Part shown: one piece after another, positions 7,446 through 51,191 of the stretch
Layout of the letters: every line of letters begins with the position of its first letter
Numbering within the stretch: position 1 is the stretch's first letter
Source of the DNA: Podarcis liolepis
Lineage: Eukaryota
Assembly (NCBI GenBank): GCA_965112155.1
Contig: OZ218103.1
Length of the DNA: 64,000 nucleotides
Reading direction: 5' to 3' (one strand)
Translations under genes and position numbers: made by a program
The notes under the pieces: generated by a model
The model's input: the letters and a program-made list of their open reading frames with translations, nothing else
Databases searched by the model: none
Told to the model about the DNA's origin: nothing

Positions 7446-8429
7446 GTCGTTTAGTCGTGTCCGACTCTTCGTGACCCCATGGACCAGAGCACGCCAGGCA
7501 CTTCTGTCCTCCACTGCCTCCCGCAGTTTGATCAAACTCATGCTAGTAGCTTCAAGAACACCATCCAACCATCTCATTCTCTGTCGTCCCCTTCTCCTTG
7601 TGCCCTCCATCTTTCCCAACATCAGGGTCTTTTCCAGGGAGTCTTCTCTTCTCATGAGGTGGCCAAAGTATTGGAGCCTCAGCTTCACGATCTGTCCTTC
7701 CAGTGAGCGCTCAGGGCTGATTTCCTTCAGAATGGAGAGGTTTGATCTTCTTGCAGTCCATGGGACTCTCAACAGTCTCCTCCAGCACCATAATTCAAAA
7801 GCATCAATTCTTCGGCGATCAGCCTTCTTTATGGTCCAGCTCTCACTTCCATACATCACTACTGGGAAAACCATGGCTTTTACTATACGGACCTTTGTTG
7901 GCAAGGTGATGTCTCTGCTTTTTAAGATGTTGTCTAGGTTTGCCATCGCCTTTCTCCCAAGGAGCAGGCGTCTTTTAATTTCGTGACTGCTGTCACCATC
8001 TGCACTGATCATGGAGCCCAAGAAAGTAAAATCTCTCACTGCCTCCATTTCTTCCCCATCTGTTTGCCAGGAGGTGATGGGCCCAGTGGCCATGATCTTC
8101 GTTTTTTTGATGTTGAGCTTCAGACCATATTTTGCGCTCTCCTCTTTCACCCTCATTAAAAGGTTCTTTAATTCCTCTTCACTTTCTGCCATCAAGGTTG
8201 TGTCATCTGCATATCTGAGGTTGTTGATATTTCTTCCGGCAATCTTAATTCCGGCTTGGGATTCATCCAGCCCAGCCTTTCGCATGATGAATTCTGCATA
8301 TAAGTTAAATAAGCAGGGAGACAATATACAGCCTTGCCGTACTCCTTTCCCAATTTGGAACCAATCAGTTGTTCCATATCCAGTTCTAACTGTAGCTTCT
8401 TGTCCCACATAGAGATTTCGCAGGAGACA
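7417..8429 (-). mobile_element. Bov-B (RTE clade) LINE, 5'-truncated, with an uninterrupted RT C-terminal reading frame
   Basis: Minus ORF 7443-8408 contains GVRQGCILSP and LRYADD RT motifs and the Bov-B C-terminus (VHGVTKSRTRLND); (CAA)n tail; TSD GAATTACTT at 7408-7416 and 8430-8438. Confidence 0.95.
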
Positions 8430-8898
8430 GAATTACTTACTGATGATAAATATATTCTATAACAATAGCAACAGAAGCAGAAGATGTCTGTTTTCAGGGC
8501 TTTGTGCTGGCACTGGAGGTTAGACTAAGCCTGGCACTCTTGCCACAACCATAGTTAATCAGTTTTGGAAATATTACAATGGACCAAATGCAGAAAGAAC
8601 AGGAATGACACAGAACAGCCTCTGGCCAATCGAGCAGCTTCCGCGAGGCTACTCTGGGCAGTCAAGACTTTGAGCATGCTCATGCTCAAAACCTGCTCTC
8701 CAGTCTTTCATGAAAAGCTATGGCAAGAGTATCACAAAGTACTTGGGTGCAGGTCCTGGGAATGACTATGGTGCTTCCATTTTCAAAATCAGCATGTTCG
8801 AACTGTTGATGCTGATGTGATGCTTGTTCTTTTATAGTTCTTCAGACATTTAACTGCAGAAAACCTAGCATAGATTTGGGCCCTGGAAATGTCAGCCT

Positions 8899-11592: not shown

Positions 11593-11704
11593 ATTGCTGA
11601 AACTTACGCCTTCCTTCCAAGAGAAGCTGTGACCAGGTTCCTGATGAGCTGCACTGAGTGCCAGAAAAGGATGCATTTCAATTCCAATGGGGTGGAGCCC
11701 AAAG
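11593..11704 (+). CDS. NOL4L: NOL4L internal coding exon (IAETYAFLPREAVTRFLMSCTECQKRMHFNSNGVEPK-E), 112 nt, phase 0 to 1
   Basis: Polypyrimidine tract and CAG acceptor at 11590-11592; donor AAG|GTAGGA at 11704/11705. The peptide matches the recalled vertebrate NOL4L sequence (the NOL4 paralog reads ISESYAF...MSCSECQKRMHLN). Confidence 0.96.
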
Positions 11705-16434: not shown

Positions 16435-16544
16435 AAAATGAACCTCCTTCCTCTCTGGTCTCTGGCATCATTGACTACAACATGCCTCTCACCTCCACCT
16501 ACCTGAAGCAGATGAAGTTGCGTGTCATGAATTCCCAGGAGCAG
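16435..16544 (+). CDS. NOL4L: NOL4L internal coding exon ([37 protein letters not shown]), 110 nt, phase 1 to 0
   Basis: Acceptor tttatttacAG ending at 16434; donor CAG|GTGAGC at 16544/16545. Joins the previous exon in frame (G|AA = Glu). The ORF track shows only an off-frame reading here. Confidence 0.96.
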
Positions 16545-17797
16545 GTGAGCTTCTTTCTTCATAATTTATCAAATCAGTCTTAATCTAGCAGGCGTACAGT
16601 GCAAAGCGTACAGTGGCTTTTAAATGCTGCCTTTGTCAGGACCAAACTCTGTTTCACAAAGCAGTGCATCATCTTTTTGAATGACACAAAACTCTCTTTC
16701 AGGCTGGATATAGTGAATAAATAAAACCAGGGAGGAGGCTAGTGAGGGGTCTCTGGGTGAAGGCATTTTGTTTTAAGCCTAGCCTTAAATTGGTAAATGG
16801 AGGACACTCTTGCCAGCTAAACAGGTTAGAACTGTGCTTTGTGCAAAAGATCTTGGGCTCCACCAAGAAGAGAAGCAAACGAAGGTGGTTGTTTTTTCCT
16901 TTGGCAACATGAAAGTGAGCAGGAATCTGAATCTCTCTCTAGTGGAATTCATGCATGTAAGGCTGAGCACAGAAATAAGGAAAGACGTACGGTGGTCCAA
17001 CAAAGCTGGAAAATAATTTTAGAAAATGTTTTAGGTTAGCAGACTGAAGCTGAATTAGTTGGCAGTTGGAGGGCTGAATGTTGTTCTTCTGCGGACCAAT
17101 ACTGCAACCCACTTGCCTGGAAGAAAGCCCTATTGAGCACAATAGCCTCTGAGTTGTCATTTATAGGATCGTACTATTAGTCCCATCTCTCTGTGGAGTA
17201 GAAAGTCTGGATAACATATGTGTCTTGACTGTTTTGTCTATTTTCTCAGCTCTGCTGTAGCTGCTAAGTCTGTGTTTAAACCTAGTCTAAAGCTAAGTAT
17301 GAAAGTGCTAAAGATAAAGTGCTAAAGTGAAGGGTGCAGCTTTGGCTGAGGAACAGAACAAATTTTAGCTATGCTACCTGAGAAGAAGAAAGGGGAGGAA
17401 AGGTTTTAAACTGAAGTGTAATTTCGCCAAGTTTGAAGCAGGCCGGGGCCAAAACTGCCAAGTTACGAGTGGTTCTCTGATTTGGAGCAGAGGACCAATG
17501 GAGGGGAAGAGCTCCAAACCCTTTCTTTTACTTTGTCTACCCAGCTGTTCTTCTCCCCATAGTGAGAAAATAGTTGTGTTCATTGCAAGGGAACTGCAGA
17601 ATCTTGCAGTGCCTTAAAGACTAACAAATTTATGATTTGGGTGTGTTGGATTGTATGTGTGTGTGTATTTGAAGGGGATGAGAAAGGGGTTGTTTTCTTT
17701 AACTAGAATTTGTTGTATCTGAAAACATGCTGTAGAGCGGGAGAGGACTTGCATGTCCCAGTTTTTTAATTTGATGGATCTGACCACAATGACTGAA

Positions 17798-18412
17798 ATA
17801 ATAATAATAATATAATAATAATTTATTATTTATACCCCGCCCATCTGGCTGAGTTTCCCCAGCCACTCTGGGCGGCTCCCAATCAGTGTTAAAAACAGTA
17901 CAGCGTTACATATTAAAAACTTCCCTGAACAGGGCTGCCTTAAGATGTCTTCTGAATGTCAGGTGATTATTTATCTCTTTGACATCTGATGGGAGGGCGT
18001 TCCACAGGGCGGGCGCCACTACCGAGAAGGCCCTCTGTCTGGTTCCCTGTAGCATCACTTCTCGCAATGAGGGAACCGCCAGAAGGCCCTCGGCGCTGGA
18101 TCTCAGTGTCTGGGCTGAACGATGGAGGTGGAGATGCTCCTTCAGGTATACAGGACCGAGGCCGTTTAGGGCTTTAAAGGTCAGCACCAATACTTTGAAT
18201 CGTGCTCGGAAACATACTGGGAGCCAATGCAGATCTCTCAGAACCGGTGTTATGTGGTCCCGGCGGCCACTCCCAGTCACCAGTCTAGCTGCCGCATTCT
18301 GGATTAATTGCAGTTTCCAGGTCACCTTCAAAGGTAGCCCCACGTAGAGCGCGTTGCAGTAGTCCAAGCGGGAGATAACCAGAGCATGCACCACTCTGGC
18401 TAGACAGTTCGC
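17798..18412 (-). mobile_element. L2 LINE, 5'-truncated, with open ORF2 C-terminus and (TTA)n tail
   Basis: ORF 17906-18394: VHALVISRLDYCNALY...QNAAARL...HITPVLRDLHWLPV...FKALNGLGP. Confidence 0.9.
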
Positions 18413-19326
18413 AAGAAAGCAAACAGGACATGGGCAAGTTTTTGTTTTTTTGCCTGATCAGGACTGGCAAGGATGTTAAGTGTAGGTTTTTGAAGGAATC
18501 TGGTTCTTCACTTTCCATGAGGCTTCATATTTGCTTTTAGGAAGAGAGAGGACATTCACCTTATTTTTGAAACACAGAGCAAGCCAAGCCAGGCAAAGAA
18601 AGGATCATTTTGTTTAGGATGAAGAGAGCAGGAAGTGTCAGGGGGGTAATCTGTTAAAATGGACTAATCCCTCACAATCGCTTTGACCTGAGATTCAACC
18701 AAATGTTTGTAGTGTTGTCGTTTCTCGTAATCTGCAGTTGGTAACCTGTCCAAGTGGCAACCTTCCCCTCTTCAAATGACTGTTGCGCTCAAGACAGAGT
18801 GGGACAAAAAATGGGGAGGGTACCATGACCTTCCTACTCTGATTGTGGGCTTCCCAGAGATAGCTGACTGCCACTGTTGAAAAAAAGAATACAGTACTAG
18901 AGGGACCTGAAGAGTCATATATTCCCACAACTGCACAAGCATAAACAAAGAATAATATTTATTAGGCTCATGTTCAGTGTCCGACTGAAATATTGCACCT
19001 GTGGTGTTGAAGGTATTGTCCTGCCAAGCCACTCTCTTGCGATATGCACCTTGGTTTCTTTGCCTGAGACATTTAATCTTAATTTCCCTTTACCACAGAA
19101 AACCCAACACATAAAAATACCCCATTATACATCTTCAGTCACTGATGGGGTGTGGTGGGAAGTTTGTCACATAGTGTGGTGATGTTTCAGTGGGTGGTCT
19201 CTATTGCAACTCCTCTGTTTCTGTTTGCTCCATACCTGAGCACCACCTAGCTGCTTTCTTTGTGGTAGCCCCCAATACCCATTTTCATTTATCACTGCAT
19301 GCTGAATGCATGCCTACTTTGGAACA

Positions 19327-19685
19327 ACTGAATTGCAACTCATTACCAAACTTAAAACCATGGAGAGACCTGGTCTGAACAAAGACATTGGATTCTTATC
19401 TCATTATACATGACTAAGCCATGTTTCACCTTCTCACCCCTTGCCTTTTCCTGCAAGACCTATTGCAGTCGTTAAGAGTCGTCAACAGGCTCATCTCAGC
19501 TATCTGCCAATCACCCATTCCCACCACCCTTCTGAGTAATACCCCTCCCCACCTTCTCACTATATAGAAGGATCTGGCAACTTCTGTTTCAGTGTATCTG
19601 AAGAAGTGTGCATACACACGAAAGCTCATACCAAGAACTAACTTAGTTGGTCTTTAAGGTGCTACTGGAAGGAATTTTTTTATTT
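19327..19685 (+). mobile_element. Penelope-like element fragment (GIY-YIG C-terminus plus pLTR with hammerhead motif)
   Basis: Translates TELQLITKLKTMERPGLNKDIGFLSHYT* at 19327-19413; pLTR end ...ttagttggtctttaaggtgctactgg; perfect 13-bp TSD CTACTTTGGAACA at 19314-19326 and 19686-19698. Confidence 0.88.
19594..19631 (+). ncRNA. Minimal type I hammerhead ribozyme motif (Penelope-associated)
   Basis: Stem I GUAU/AUAC; core CUGAAGA(A); stem II GUGUG-CAUA-CACAC; GAAA; palindromic AGCU stem III; predicted cleavage after C19627. Confidence 0.8.
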
Positions 19686-21099
19686 CTACTTTGGAACAGT
19701 TCTCTGAAGATCCCCATACACTCAGTTGTGGGCGATTATGCTGGAGACTGTAATTGTGGTGCAAATGTTGGACTTTTCTCTTTTAATTTTTAGTACGGAT
19801 GTCTTGTGCAAGACCCCATTATCATAATTTGGTATTTTATTGCTGCTGTATTTTTTGGGTGGTGGTGGGGAATGCATGGTTGAAGTTTTAACTCTTACGG
19901 TGGCCTGTGGAGCATTCCTAAATGTTTGGGATATTGCCACCACCCCCGATCCTGCAAAGAGTAGTTTGCTGTAGCTGAATATTACTCTTGTGCAGGACAT
20001 CTGTGCTAAGAACAAAGCAAAACAAAATCAGGTTGAAATTGAAACCTACCTGTCTTGCAAAGGGCACATGTTTTCATTATGCTTTTGCATACTACCTTGG
20101 GGGAAAATTCACATGCACAGGTATCAAAATAGCTTTGTGCATGCCCGAAGTAGCTCTCAACAAAGAGACAGGGACGCATTTCAAGCAAACACTACAAAAA
20201 CTATTTCATCATAACATAGCGAAACAAAAATACAATAATATACAAAACCCATATTTCAATACCATATACAACAAGATTATTAAACAACATATCCAAGTCC
20301 AAAAAAAGGGAATGTGTGGACAGTTGTGGGCACAGCAAAATCAGATCTGAACTACCTGTTTGTGATATAAAGCCCCCAGCCTTGTTTTGGTGTGGAGTCC
20401 GGCAACCAAAGTTAAAGGGAGTACTGGAACATTTTTGAAACCTTCCTGGGCAGCAGCCCAAGAGGAGGTCATTTTGTCAGCGTAGAACACGGCGGTAGCT
20501 GCCGTTGGAACTCAGATACCACATGTCCCTGTTAGGCTTCGTGCTGGTTGCTATGGATTTGCAAGACCCATTAGAGCTATTTTAAGAGACAGAGTTGCCA
20601 TGGCAGGACCCAGCCCTTCCTCTCTTGCATATCCCAAACTCTCCCCTGACATCCGTTGGAATTTGAGGTGTGTTAGGAATGGAGCAGGCGGTCACACCTG
20701 GTGCAGGCGCCAAATTTAGAGAATATCTTCAAGAGGCATTTTTTTTCAAACCAAAGGCATGAGGGCAGGGTGGTGGGAGTAGCAAGACTGGATATTATAG
20801 AAAGCTAGTGAAGTGAGTGGGAGCTGAACATTGCTTTGTGCTGGGGAGGATTTGTGCCCTGTGTTCATCTCTCCTCTTCCCATTCCTGAAAGGCTAAAGG
20901 TAGTTGGGTGGCCTGCGGGTCTTCAATCTGCTATTTATGCTAAACATTTCTTGGTCTCATCTGTGTGTTGGGGCTGCAGAGAGCACAGATGAAAACAGTC
21001 GTCATTGCTGGGACACAAAACATGAACTCTCATTCCCCCTACATAATATCATGATCTTCCTACAATAAGGGTTTTTTTAATATAAAAAAGTACTGTTTA

Positions 21100-28459: not shown

Positions 28460-31166
28460 CAAGAACTTGAACGTGGGTAGTTCCCCGAAAAGTGCCACGG
28501 ACCGGTGTGTGTCTGAGCGAGCGCCCCTTGTGAATAACCTGCTGGGAGCGCCCCTCTTCCTTGCAGGGCACATCCAGCCCTGCCCTTCCTGCAGGATGCC
28601 TCGTACCTGCCTTCCATCATCCTTCCCGGCAAGGAGTCCAGGCCGCTCTTTAGAAAATGGACGGGCTCCCCTCCCTCCCTCCCTCTCTGCCTCCTCCTCT
28701 CCTCGTGCATTTCCCCCCGTTTCTTTCTCTCCACCCTCCGGCGACACAACACAGCGTCTCCCTCTGGCTTTCGCCTCCTTGCGCGCACGGTGTGTGCGCC
28801 TATGTGTCTCCGACAGGGCGTGCGCCGCCTCCTCCGCCTCCTGGTCTCCCCCCCCTCCCGGGATGCGTGTAGGAGGCTCAGGCTGCCTGTGTCCCCCCTC
28901 CCCCAGCCCTCTCTTCCCCGTCTCTCTCTCTCTCGCTCCCCCCTCCCCCCGATCCGGGAGTGACGCGCTCCGCAGTGCCAGCCCTCCTCTCTCCTCTCCG
29001 CTCCCCTCCCGGCGGGGCGCTCCTCCTCGGGCAGCAGCTGGCTGTCAGCCTTCCCCGGAGCGCCCCCTTCTCTCTCGGCCAGGGCTGGCGCAGGCCGGCG
29101 GCGGGCCCCAGGCGCCGCAGCGGCCCCGCAGCAGGTAGGCGATGGCTGGGGCCGGGCAGGAGACGGGCCGCCCCGGCCACAGGGAACGGGAGGAGAGAGA
29201 GGGGGACGGCCGTGCGTCCCCGGACGCGCCGCGCTCCGTGCGCCCTGCTACGAGCAAAAGCAGCGGGTCTTGGCGGGGCGGGGGGGGGCAACTTGTGGGT
29301 CTTGGGGCCAGCCAGCCATTCCCCCACCCCGGGAGGGGGTGGTGGTCCAGTTGAACCCAGGCTAGCCTGGCACTGGGGGCGCGCAGAGAGAGGAAGGTGT
29401 GCGTACCCAAGGAGGAGCGTCCGGAAAGCCCTGGCGACCCCGGGGTGTGCGCCGGCGAATTGGGCGTGCGGGTGGAAGACCCCCGAGAGGTGGCCGCTTG
29501 GGGAGGGATGGGGGGCGGCGGCGGCGGGGCTGCCCTCGCCGCTCTCGCTCTCTTGTTTCACTTTCCGGCAGCCAAAGCGCTTTACACTGCCGGGCGCCTT
29601 TTTCAGGGGGCGGCCACGCGTGGGGGTGGGGAGGGGGCGTGTGGGCACGGAAGGGGCGGAGGCAAGTTTATTGGAGGGGAGCGCCGAGCAGCCTGCGACT
29701 GGAGGGGCGCGTCCTTGATCGGAGGGGGTTCGCTTTTGTTTGCTTGCCACTATAGGAATTCCTCGGGATCCTCGGGTGGGGGGGGGTGGAGGAAGACGAG
29801 CCGCGACTGCGGGGTGGGGACGCGGAGAGAGGAGCGCGCTCAAGGAACGGGGAGGGGGGGTGTCCGTTTGGAGTTAGCCAACGGGCCGCATACACTCTGC
29901 GCTTGGAATGTTCGGGGGGGGAGAATCCGTGGGGGGGGGTCAACGGCAAGAGGTGGAAGAAGAGTGTTCAGCGATGCCTGGCAGTACGGGGGGGGAGAGG
30001 GATGGGAGGCGCGTGGAGGCGGAAGGGGACAGGGGGCGTGTGAATGCCGGACTGAACTCGTGGAGGAGCAGCCGCGCGCCCGGCGATTGTTGACAGGTTG
30101 CTCGGGCTCTGCGTGTACACGGAGGTGGGCAGGGGAGGAGGACCTGGCGGTGGGCGGCTGCTCCGTGTACTCCGGGTAGATACAATGGAGGACGGCCTGG
30201 GGCCCGTCTCCAGGAAGGAAGTTGCGAGGACTTTACTGGGTGGGAGTGAGGGGTGTGTGCATGTGTGGATGCACACCCGGGAACTTATCCGACGAGTGTT
30301 ACAACAGTTGCTGGAGAGTTCCTTTTGCAGACGCACTCCTGTCCCACTGGAACGTGGGCAGCTGCGAAGTGAATGAGTTTGTAGTAACACCGCATTTCTC
30401 CTTCTTGTGCGCGCAAGAGCAGGGCGCTGGGTTTGTGCGCGCGCGTGTGAAAAGTAGTTACAGAGTGCTGCGTGTCGGGCAGGGCTCGCCTGACAGTTTG
30501 CTGGCGTTTTGGCCGGGGTGAGGGGAGCGGGTGGGTGGGTGGGTGGCCTCGCGCGGAATCTGCGCGCAGCCAGCCGGGGGGGTGTCAGACGCGGCGCTCG
30601 GAGTTGTGAGGCTGGTAATGCGTGGATCGGGGCCGGCGGGCCGGGGTCCCGTTGGCTCGAGGGAGGAGGGGCGGAATCTCGCCGTTTTTGAAAACTCCCT
30701 CGTGCGTTCTGATTCCAGACTGGCCCCCACGACTCCTCTACCTACCGACCCTCCTTCCCAGACAGCTACCCGAACCGAACCGCCTCGGCCTCGTCTTCCC
30801 CTCTTTAGCACCTAGAGACAACCCCCCCCCCTCCGAGCGGCCTCTCATTAGCGTCTCTAATGAGCCCGATGCCTGGAGAAAGGTTAAGGTTAGCGCGTCC
30901 TTCCCTTCTCCTCCTTTCCCTTCCTTCGCCAGCATCTTCCCCTCCCCGGAAGAGCACAAAAGCGCAGAAAGAAGAAAGTGGGGAGAGGCGGCGGCGAAGG
31001 CAGATCAATGGGGAGCTCCAGACCCATCAATTCGCCCAGGGAGCTGCTTCTCCTTCTCTCCAGCATCGATTTTCCCTTTCCCACCCTAGGCGCAGGGAGA
31101 GACACCCCCCCTTCCCTAGCCTTCCCTCCATCATCTCCTTTCTACCTGGAGAGTAGGAGGGGCGGG

Positions 31167-39100: not shown

Positions 39101-40261
39101 TACCCACTACAAGCCCTCGGTTTGGGTAGACTAAAAATGTGGCATGAATGAATAAAGAATAAGTGTTTACAGATATACCAAAGTTGAATGGGGGAAAATG
39201 AATATTTGAAATGTCTTATATTGAAGCAGGCTACTGTTGCATCTAGCCCTGTGCTGCTTACTCTGACTGGTAGCTCCTCACCAGAGTCACCAGTAGGGCC
39301 CCCTCCCATCACCTGCCACCTGAGCCTTCTAGCTAGAGTTGTGTGGGGATTGGACCTCCATGTAAAGTGAGCCCTGCCGTTGAGCTATGGCCCCTTCTGA
39401 AACGTTTTGACTCCCAGGTTCCAGCATTAAGTATTTGCAACAGAGGGCACCAAATCTAGAGAGAAGGCAAGTCTCAGCAAATTGCAAATGCGGGCTGAAC
39501 AGAGGAAGGAACAGAGGACATAAACTCATAAACTTAAGCGAGAGGGAAAGTAAACTTGGCTGCAGACTAGGCTACCTGATTTGTGCAAACTACGGTAGGT
39601 TGTCTGTATGTCAGGAAGGGCCACAGAAACGCTTGATGAAAAGTTAGTCAGCACAGTGATGCTGCTGCCAAGGAAGCCACCTCTGAACTGAGTTACTTTA
39701 AGAAATAAGAAAGGAAGCAGGCATGGGAGGAAGTGCGTGTTCTCTAGCCTAGTCAGCCTGTGTGCAGCCGTACTGTGCTGAACCTGGACCACTCCGCTTA
39801 TCAAGAAAGGCAAGGGAGGGGCAGGCAATAATCCAAAGCAGAGCAAGAGAAGCCATTGGAAGCATTGAGAATAGATTGGGGGTGGGGCGAACACAGGTGG
39901 TAATGGGTTCACTTGGCTTGGAAATGACTGCAGCCTGTTCCCATAATACCTTCTGCATGGGCTATGCAGGCCTTTAGCTGCGCCGCCACATACTGAGCTT
40001 TTCCTATGGATGCCAAAAATAAAACTTGAAGTGGGCAAAAGTGGTTAGGATCCTATTGCCACATGGGTTAATTTCATGGCCTCAGAATTTTATATGACAT
40101 GATTTGTGTGTGCAGTAGCAAGGCCGAAGGGGCTCAACGTAGCCAAAGGATGCAGTTGCCGTGTGCAGAAAGGGTTGTGAGAATAGGGTCCAGTGAGCGG
40201 AGGGGATGTCACTGAGGATAAACATGTGATTGTTCTCCTTTTCTCCTGTGGATAAGATGAG

Positions 40262-40714
40262 CAGTGGCGTAGCGTGGGGGGTGCCAGGGGGGCCGGCCGC
40301 ACCGGGCGCAACATCTGGGGAGGCGCGCTCGCTGCCTCCGGAGTCGCCGAAGAGCCTCGGGCACAGGCTGTAGTGGAGCCGCATGTCTCGCGGAACCGAC
40401 GAGCTGTGCGCGCGTCCGGGCTGAAGGCGCCCGGCAGGCAGCGGCTCTCAGCGCTCGCTGCGGAGGACGCGCCAGGCAGCCCCTCCTCACAGCCCCGCCT
40501 CCGCCAGTGCTGCTGCAGCTGCTGGGCCGTTGCATTTTCCTCGCCTCTCTGCCCCCCTCCTCCTCCGGGCAAGCGGCGTCGTTTGGGCGGCAGCGCCAGC
40601 GGCAACTCACAGGTTAGGGGTTAGGGGGGGCGCAAATTACTTGCCTTCCCCCGGGTTAGGGGGCGCAAATTACTTGCGTTGCCCCGGGTGCTGACAACTC
40701 ACGCTACGCCGCTG
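40262..40714. mobile_element. Non-autonomous hAT element (long form) with ~290-bp CpG-rich internal segment
   Basis: TIRs CAGTGGCGTAGCGTG / CACGCTACGCCGCTG; perfect 8-bp TSD AAGATGAG at 40254-40261 and 40715-40722; ends match the reverse complement of 12670-12839. Confidence 0.92.
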
Positions 40715-42337
40715 AAGATGAGAACTCTTTGGCATAAACTGCAAGGGAAAATATTCAATCTGTATGTTAGGAAAACTCACTAGCTGCCAGATTGGTGGTT
40801 GCCTTGAGGCACAGTGGTGTGTCTCTCTCACTTGGAGGCCTCTAAGAGCAGGTTTCATAAGTTCAAGTCCCTGGGACAGGGCTCTGTTTCTGTGATGTTA
40901 TTGAGGAGACAGGGTGACCAAGCTGTGACATATGTTCCTCGACAGACTGAGAGGCACTGCGCAGGCCCCTGGGATTCTTCCAGTTGGTGAAGTTTAACCC
41001 TCTACCTGGAATTTTAGCATGTCTTTGCATAGTTGTGAAGACCTGGAATTCCCAGGACACACCTGCACCCAATCTTTATTTGCGCTTAGGAGGCACATCT
41101 TATGAGCCTGTGGTCCACGCTCTGGACAAACTACACAACTTGAGCCCAGGCTAGTCTCCGCCCATCTGCTTGACCATAAGTGCGGACTGTACACTCTTCC
41201 TGGTGGAGTAATTGTGTCTTGAAAGATACTGTTCTTCCTTTTTGGGGAGACTGATACAGGGACCAAGTTGGGGAATTGCGAAGTCTCCTGTTGGAAGATG
41301 CTTTTTCTCAGCCTGAGCCCTCTGCGTATTCAGTATGGGGGAAAGAACTGACGTCCCATTTAGAATCACTATAAGGATTAAAACTGGACAGTATATTTGA
41401 AGTGTGCAGAGCAGTCAAAAGTGCTATATAAATGTCATGTAGTGATTTGAGCGTTCCCATGCTTGTGGAGCTGCAGCCCACAAGAGAGAGAGGTATCAGC
41501 AGACGTTGTGTCAAAACAACAAGAATGAATTATAGAAAACAGTTAGCAGAGAACATTTGTCATAATCTGGCAAATGCCTGGGGAAGAGAGATTTTTACTT
41601 GGTGTTGAAAAGTTGTTAATAATGACTGCTCCAGCAAGGTGGACCTTGCTGGGGGAGCATTCCACAAGCGGAGAGCCACAACTGAAAAGGCCCCTTCCCT
41701 CATCACTCCCTTCTGAACCTCCCTCAAAACAGGCAAGGCTGCAGTGTGGTCTAGAGGTATTTCACCCCTGTTGCAGGTTGAGGTTGGACTGAAGCAGAGA
41801 GTAGCATACAAAAAACCTGCTGTGCAGTTTATTGTTTTTATCCTCGTATTATGGGCTGAGAGAGAGTCATGTATAACAACCCTAATATATATACTTTCCA
41901 GGGAGGTAGGAAGAGTCCTTAAAAATGTGAAAGGAAAGAAACCCAGACAAAACACCTTGAATGGAAGAGCAATTAGTGCCGTAAAGTTCACTGTTATACC
42001 CCTATTGCAGCTTGGAAGGCTGTGCAGAGAGGCAGGGAGGGAGAGTAGCTTACAGGAGCAATGTAGACTACTGTTAATATTGCAGGGTAAAGGAGGACTA
42101 CATGAACTGCTTCCTCCCAGGCCAGAGCAAACACTTAATTGCTTGGAGAAGCCATTTACTTGCATGCAGTCTGCACTTCTTAAATGTTAAAATCTGAAAA
42201 AATAAATACCTAAAAGTAGTTTGTGAAGCTAGATCTGTCAGAGTAGAGATGCCTTTCTTTGATGCTAAGGCCTAGGTAACACTCCCTCCCCCTCCCCCCC
42301 CCAAGATACACTGTAACATTTTCCTGCAGGAAAATGT

Positions 42338-51049: not shown

Positions 51050-51191
51050 GATGAGACATCGGTGAGCAGTGAGGACTTTGATATGAGTGACTCCACATGG
51101 ATGTCAGCTGACCAGCATCTTAACTCCAGTCTGAGTCCTAGCCAGGAGGAAGGGATGCGCAGCCCGCAGAACATCCACAGCCAGGAGGATG
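51050..51191 (+). CDS. NOL4L: NOL4L internal coding exon ([48 protein letters not shown]), 142 nt, phase 0 to 1; contains the short-isoform start ATG at 51083
   Basis: Long pyrimidine tract with TAG acceptor ending at 51049; donor ATG|GTGAGT at 51191/51192. In frame with exon 16435-16544 and matches the recalled NOL4L peptide. Confidence 0.96.

Follow-up and report, generated by a model that had tools for sequence, protein, structure and literature searches.

The window analysed here, a stretch of 64,000 nucleotides from Podarcis liolepis, carries plus-strand exons of a NOL4-family gene, a 359-bp insertion in one of its introns and, inside the insertion, one minimal hammerhead motif (Table 1).

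Table 1. Features of the host gene and of the insertion, in window coordinates
Position	Strand	Feature	Remarks
11593-11704	+	Host coding exon	
16435-16544	+	Host coding exon before the insertion	NOL4-family gene, likely NOL4L
19314-19326	+	Target-site duplication (TSD), left copy, 13 bp	Identical 13-mers; empty-site contigs
19327-19685	+	Young, likely Neptune-type Penelope-like element copy, 359 bp	5'-truncated; tail-less 3' end class
19327-19413	+	Reverse transcriptase (RT)/GIY-YIG ORF remnant, last 28 codons plus stop	Non-functional; downstream of the GIY-YIG motif
19561-19567	+	TATA-like box of the pLTR, putative element promoter	Same 10-mer in 87/93 near-identical copies
19589-19593	+	Initiator-like motif	Putative element transcription start at ~19590-19592; also 3' splice-site-like CAG
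19594-19631	+	Minimal type I hammerhead, predicted cut 19627/19628	Intact core; loop II A at 19614 (family: G)
19686-19698	+	TSD, right copy	Same 13-mer as 19314-19326
28501-31000		Intronic CpG island, candidate internal promoter	Strand undefined; candidate splice donor 29134/29135
51050-51191	+	Host coding exon	End of the 34.5-kb intron

A young Penelope-like insertion in a NOL4-family intron

The host gene has further exons on both sides of these, starting ~46 kb before the window and reaching ~84 kb (window coordinates); one of those downstream matches the Pfam domain HTH_NOL4_2nd (E 2.5e-38). The preliminary description had placed the insertion in an intron of NOL4L; the assignment to a NOL4-family intron holds, while NOL4L itself is likely rather than established. 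A weak Atlas lead to NOL4L for one host exon (0.79, under 0.9) and peptide motifs that we take to point to NOL4L favour it over NOL4. Atlas gave no usable match for another host exon, and Pfam no match for five host exon pieces. The insert sits 2.8 kb into the 34.5-kb intron and in sense to the gene. Since the host coding exons and the motif are both on the plus strand, the hammerhead does lie on the pre-mRNA strand, as first described. It also lies upstream of a CpG island that the same intron contains at 28.5-31 kb. From its sequence, this island is a plausible candidate for the internal promoter of the preliminary description. A literature search covering a minority of subscription papers found no described internal promoter of NOL4L. 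A second, smaller CpG-rich stretch occupies window positions 40001-41000 of the same intron.

We compared contigs from four public sequencing runs with window positions 17.5-21.5 kb. In runs X4 and X11 (organisms B and F), contigs join 19313 directly to 19686, which is an empty site: the window minus the insert and one TSD copy. Together with the identical 13-mers at its two ends, this bears out the proposal of a TSD-bounded 359-bp insertion. In run X3 (organism A) the contig joins 19318 to 19754 and lacks the element plus 63 nt more, while in run X1 (another sample of organism A, with several differences from the window) both insertion junctions are present. The insertion is thus absent in three of four runs from other samples; depth over the locus in these runs was not taken as copy number. 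This pattern marks it as young and not fixed, and so speaks against domestication. The break in X3 falls inside the target site, with the 63 nt of flank missing along with the insertion, and reflects either a deletion at an empty site or an imprecise loss.

The 28 codons and stop at the start of the insert match the C-terminus of a 910-aa family ORF that combines RT and GIY-YIG domains, which upholds the proposed Penelope origin. Of the in-frame GIY-YIG tail reported earlier, these last codons and the stop are real, but the GIY-YIG motif itself (residues 812-864 of the ORF) lies outside the insert. Of 19 other copies examined, 18 reach beyond the upstream end of the window copy by varying lengths, which identifies the latter as 5'-truncated. 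It differs from the 19 nearest copies examined by one private change in 359 nt, and the best 40 of 1,631 candidate full-length places (self included) in the 1.57 Gb genome match it at 99-100%. The family to which the insert belongs, a Penelope-like retroelement, is very abundant, and this copy of it is recent and not fixed. A non-LTR retrozyme, which consists of tandem non-coding hammerhead units, was rejected as an identification, since the window holds a single copy with an ORF remnant.

Full units of the family measure 3,008 nt, occur in partial tandems and contain the 910-aa ORF and two hammerheads 3 kb apart. The ORF matches Pfam RVT_1 (E 1.3e-11) and GIY-YIG (E 2.1e-05), the domain pair of EN+ Penelope-like elements, and the family also has the optional 30-40-nt tail of such elements. 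Its copies show partial tandems forming pLTRs, 5' truncation and inverted 5' pieces, the window copy being a simple truncation. The ORF starts ~64 nt after C17 of the hammerhead, inside the tail that the window copy lacks. At six loci, full 3-kb units form partial tandems and inverted arrays; three of these loci retain uninterrupted ORFs of >900 codons, consistent with a recently active family. Read directly, the family ORF has a C-terminal GIY-YIG domain with two cysteines within the motif and a CX4CxxC linker, a combination common to Neptune and Nematis. Neptune is the likely clade; the choice between the two follows the host group, since Neptune and Poseidon are the clades reported across vertebrates in the available text of bioRxiv 10.64898/2026.07.22.740005. 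Published Neptune-clade EN+ elements (Craig et al. 2021, PMC8557442, available text) share the C-terminal GIY-YIG, the two cysteines and the linker, as well as 5' truncation, partial tandems, 5' inversions and the 30-40-nt tail. Young and abundant as it is, the family should be useful to Penelope specialists.

An abundant minimal hammerhead

The motif is the only minimal hammerhead in the 64-kb window. Helix I pairs 19594-19597 with 19628-19631 (4 bp) and helix II pairs 19606-19610 with 19615-19619. The core runs from C3 (19598) to A9 (19604), followed by an extra A at 19605, and continues with G12 to A15.1 (19620-19623), U16.1 (19626) and C17 (19627). It thus contains every element by which the core of a minimal hammerhead is recognised: C3-A9, G12-A15.1, U16.1-H17, the extra base after A9 and G10.1-C11.1. 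Positions 15.1-16.1 (19623-19626) are palindromic and form no monomeric helix III, as is typical of the class. The earlier statement that all core nucleotides and helices are intact is therefore correct for the core and, as complementary sequence, for helices I and II; a monomeric helix III is absent.

By the features tested, the motif belongs to the minimal hammerheads of Penelope-like pLTRs. Those described in the available text of Cervera and De la Pena (2014, PMC4209133) are likewise type I with a 4-bp helix I, an extra base between 9 and 10.1, a G10.1-C11.1 pair, a palindromic 15.2-16.2 segment and no loop 3; they occur as thousands of mostly single genomic copies, and reptiles are among the hosts named. 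The high uniformity of the copies found here resembles that study's D. virilis case of ongoing invasion. By contrast, helix II is 7-8 bp in its schistosome families and 5 bp with a 4-nt loop here. Unlike in the families of that paper, helix II and its loop in the family form (window 19606-19619) make a perfect 14-nt palindrome, which the window's A at 19614 breaks.

The family form of the 38-nt hammerhead has 9,879 exact copies in the genome (4,999 on the plus and 4,880 on the minus strand) against 0 for its control, and the window's loop variant has 36 against 0 for its reversed control. Since reversed controls gave none, the motif is not a chance occurrence. A search with hammerhead models, suggested in the preliminary description, returned 0 Rfam matches at the gathering score and 0 at E up to 10, a result that says little because the Rfam models are uninformative for minimal hammerheads. 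The 46-nt hammerhead fold was not more stable than shuffled sequences (z -0.71); the exact core and the copy number, and not folding energy, are the basis for regarding the motif as real. Within the family, hammerhead variants are uncompensated (helix I, 2 of 100 listed; helix II, none of the point variants among 30 loci), as expected for drifting dead copies. Eight older, decayed copies share the core but have a different helix II hairpin of 15-17 nt, and they probably represent one or more other Penelope-like families.

Conserved, monomer-competent hammerheads lie in sense in amniote introns, namely HH9 and HH10. A host-selected, self-sufficient ribozyme of that kind, or like the CPEB3 ribozyme, would share with the present motif its sense orientation and intact core, and nothing more. 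The empty sites largely refute such a reading, and the single private change, the missing monomeric helix III and the lack of an Rfam match further speak against it, so that we consider it vanishingly improbable. A canonical or domesticated intronic hammerhead was rejected on the same grounds (no Rfam match, no stable helix III, absence in three of four runs). The CPEB3 ribozyme is likewise a self-cleaving motif in sense within an intron, but it is conserved and monomer-competent (PMC10919898, available text), whereas the motif studied here is part of a young, non-fixed transposon copy without helix III.

Ends of sister copies

We scored ends in the first 70 of the 9,879 exact hammerhead copies, all on one contig and in a region denser than average; sampling by an exact hammerhead is blind to 5' ends downstream of 19594. 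The 5' end lies at 19588-19594 in 36 of the 70 copies, 22 of which join an inverted piece there, and the other 34 ends are scattered over 550 nt. The same pile-up was seen in 88 loci from biased sets, in place of which we used the 70-copy sample. It spans 7 nt immediately upstream of helix I and lies 30 nt past the TATA-like box (window 19561-19594; loci L244-L303). Since the ends fall at this distance from the box and on the initiator-like motif, element transcription likely starts at ~19590-19592, with the hammerhead beginning 2-4 nt later. The same literature search, again covering a minority of subscription papers, found no TATA-to-hammerhead start in Neptune elements or other Penelope-like elements. 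A 3' splice site behind the pile-up was also considered and is disfavoured, since no spliced junction recurred among 221 junctions (2 single matches).

The pLTR promoter or splice-like signals, and not the ribozyme, could in principle cause any effect on the host gene. The TATA-like box and initiator, which are in sense, could give rise to RNAs that begin within the intron, or a 67-nt cryptic exon could form between the acceptor-like site at 19592 and a donor at 19659. The position of the box 30 nt before the pile-up fits the first route, and the pyrimidine tract and CAG at 19581-19592 with the GT at 19659 fit the second. However, the donor is weak by eye, the window copy lacks the ORF start codon and none of the 221 genomic junctions is a recurring spliced one, which leaves this explanation very unlikely.

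The 3' ends fall into two classes, at ~19676-19692 in 39 of the 70 copies (tail-less) and at 19716-19728 in 29 (with tail), with 2 elsewhere; a second count gave 26/51 and 25/51. Two classes are expected if RT starts at two internal sites (compare PMC11167929, available text). In the Anolis Poseidon element PAc, which belongs to a different clade, the available text of Frangieh et al. (2024, PMC11167929) likewise describes a tail delimited by two fixed 3' ends, copying of uncut RNA and a hammerhead within the pLTR/ORF-start region. The ORF of PAc starts inside the hammerhead, whereas the ATG here lies ~64 nt after C17, in the tail, and the sharp 5' stop just before helix I is also unlike PAc.

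The copies were also examined for traces of cleavage. The window copy continues 58 nt past the cut site, and its template was therefore uncut. With two-letter exclusion patterns, we counted 34 junctions at the cut site; the two control positions, one base downstream and two bases upstream, gave 32 each. Allowing for rough detection rates (0.36, 0.36 and 0.6, respectively), the counts become ~94 at the cut, ~89 one base downstream and ~53 two bases upstream. When 5' ends were scored at 30 loci taken from 369 matches, the largest bin was the cut site (8/30 rows, 6 distinct loci), but the direct counts fail to uphold a spike at that position. Among 30 cut-site junctions, 14 are one recurring inversion junction that uses 4 nt common to both helix I strands. 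This inversion (~position 1500), found at 14 loci, brings together an inverted copy, which ends at helix I's 5' strand, and a direct copy, which starts exactly at the cut site. Microhomology explains the junction, and cleavage may also have produced it. Of 67 copies broken just 3' of the core, no more than 6, judged by eye, have their 3' end at the cut, and several of these are indels or point changes.

Genome-wide, ~5,000 copies stop at the putative start and ~100-140 at the cut site. Since the latter make up ~1% of copies, the copied templates were almost all uncut, and the comparison sets a ceiling of 2-3% cut templates. We lean towards the view that half of the family's hammerheads are run-off copies of an uncut 5' leader, with an in vivo ceiling of ~2-3% cut templates. 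Genomic copies report solely on reverse-transcribed RNAs, and degraded cut RNAs would escape this view. The ends of family copies thus mark two RT starts and, 2-4 nt upstream of the ribozyme, a likely start of transcription, and almost never the cut site. Drawn from genomic data in a second clade, they support what was found in vitro, namely that uncut RNA is copied by Penelope elements.

Cleavage capacity and the host transcript

The preliminary description held that cleavage would generally need a dimer and that a lone copy may well be inactive, and both points agree with our results: the motif has no monomeric helix III, and published minimal hammerheads are inactive as monomers or depend on protein. 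In the available text of PMC4209133, a single minimal hammerhead shows no cleavage and dimers show low cleavage. The PAc hammerhead cleaves only with the element protein, its cleavage is not needed for insertion and no RNA-seq ends at the cut are described in the available part of that report (PMC11167929). On the other hand, nine Xenopus dimers assayed in vitro included one with high activity (bioRxiv 10.64898/2026.07.22.740005, available text).

We scanned 184 kb around the locus (200 N) and found no intact sense partner within the predicted host gene. Two other intact hammerheads lie in this region, one antisense inside the gene and the other in sense, ~11 kb upstream of the first coding exon. 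The antisense copy belongs to a fold-back stub in the host gene, ~12.5-12.7 kb before the window, where it is joined to a sense half copy that lacks the CUGA core. The predicted probability of helix I is 0.42-0.49 in a 55-nt context and at most 0.04 in four contexts of 110-700 nt; with this and no cis partner, inactivity is the most likely state of the lone copy. The predicted active dimer (-12.7 kcal/mol) is less favourable than two monomers (-15.6) or the best cofold (-19.2), and the best cofold of the family form (-32.6 kcal/mol) is a 14-bp helix II duplex without helix III, a predicted inactive dimer. These energies ignore tertiary contacts and proteins. The further proposal that the long isoform carries a meaningful latent cleavage site fares poorly, given the lack of an intact sense partner in the gene, the low helix I probability and the disfavoured active dimer. 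It is weakened further because the motif is one of ~10,000 copies, is not fixed and belongs to a family whose templates are copied uncut.

Together, these findings make it very probable that the insert is a recent, non-fixed, truncated Penelope-like copy whose minimal hammerhead is an inert passenger in the host intron. In the sequence of events we propose, the element endonuclease would have cut the host intron and reverse transcription would have begun at the upstream (~19685) of two fixed internal sites 3' of the hammerhead, the other of which adds a tail of ~34 nt. Reverse transcription would then have continued through the hammerhead, still uncut, and ended after 359 nt. The likely place of the hammerhead in the element itself is the extreme 5' end of a pLTR-initiated RNA, ~64 nt before the ORF start; cutting there would require a dimer or assistance from the element protein. 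Within the host pre-mRNA there is no cis partner, and the ORF-start sequence that bound the protein in the Anolis element is missing, so that the hammerhead would rarely if ever cut. Against an inert passenger stand the fully intact core, the helix I probability in the 55-nt context and the corrected cut-site count (~94), which exceeds one control (~53) but not the other (~89).

Element RNA or protein from active loci might instead complete the hammerhead in trans and cut a few long-isoform transcripts where the element is expressed. The intact core and sense orientation would allow this, and intact ORFs and tandems are present in the genome; protein-assisted cleavage has been shown for the Anolis Poseidon hammerhead (PMC11167929, available text), and an intronic ribozyme can tune mRNA output in the case of CPEB3 (PMC10919898, available text). 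However, the active dimer is disfavoured, the family form favours the helix II duplex, the Anolis protein (from a different clade, and so a lead only) needs an ORF-start region that is missing from the window copy, and family templates are copied uncut. In addition, the 9,879 copies lead us to expect thousands of sense intronic copies, evidently tolerated. We regard cleavage in trans as very unlikely.

A broader form of conditional cleavage, in which protein or pLTR RNA of the active element (for example in the germ line) would switch on lone host hammerheads, is a long shot; the insertion would then be a conditional cutter of long NOL4L, with thousands of others acting likewise genome-wide. 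If this were true, natural presence/absence alleles would allow a mobile element to tune host isoforms, and the locus would offer a ready allele-specific test. As a regulator of the host gene, the hammerhead is probably unimportant, being one of ~10,000 copies of a known motif. The literature search, which covered a minority of subscription papers, found no study of this locus.

Other repeats accompany the insertion in the host gene. A very high-copy repeat at window ~17793-18415, presumably SINE-like, is absent in run X11, where 17792 and 18415 are adjacent in one contig. Positions 7446-8432 of the minus strand, within an upstream host intron, encode a 329-aa fragment of a LINE reverse transcriptase (Pfam RVT_1, E 2.2e-18).
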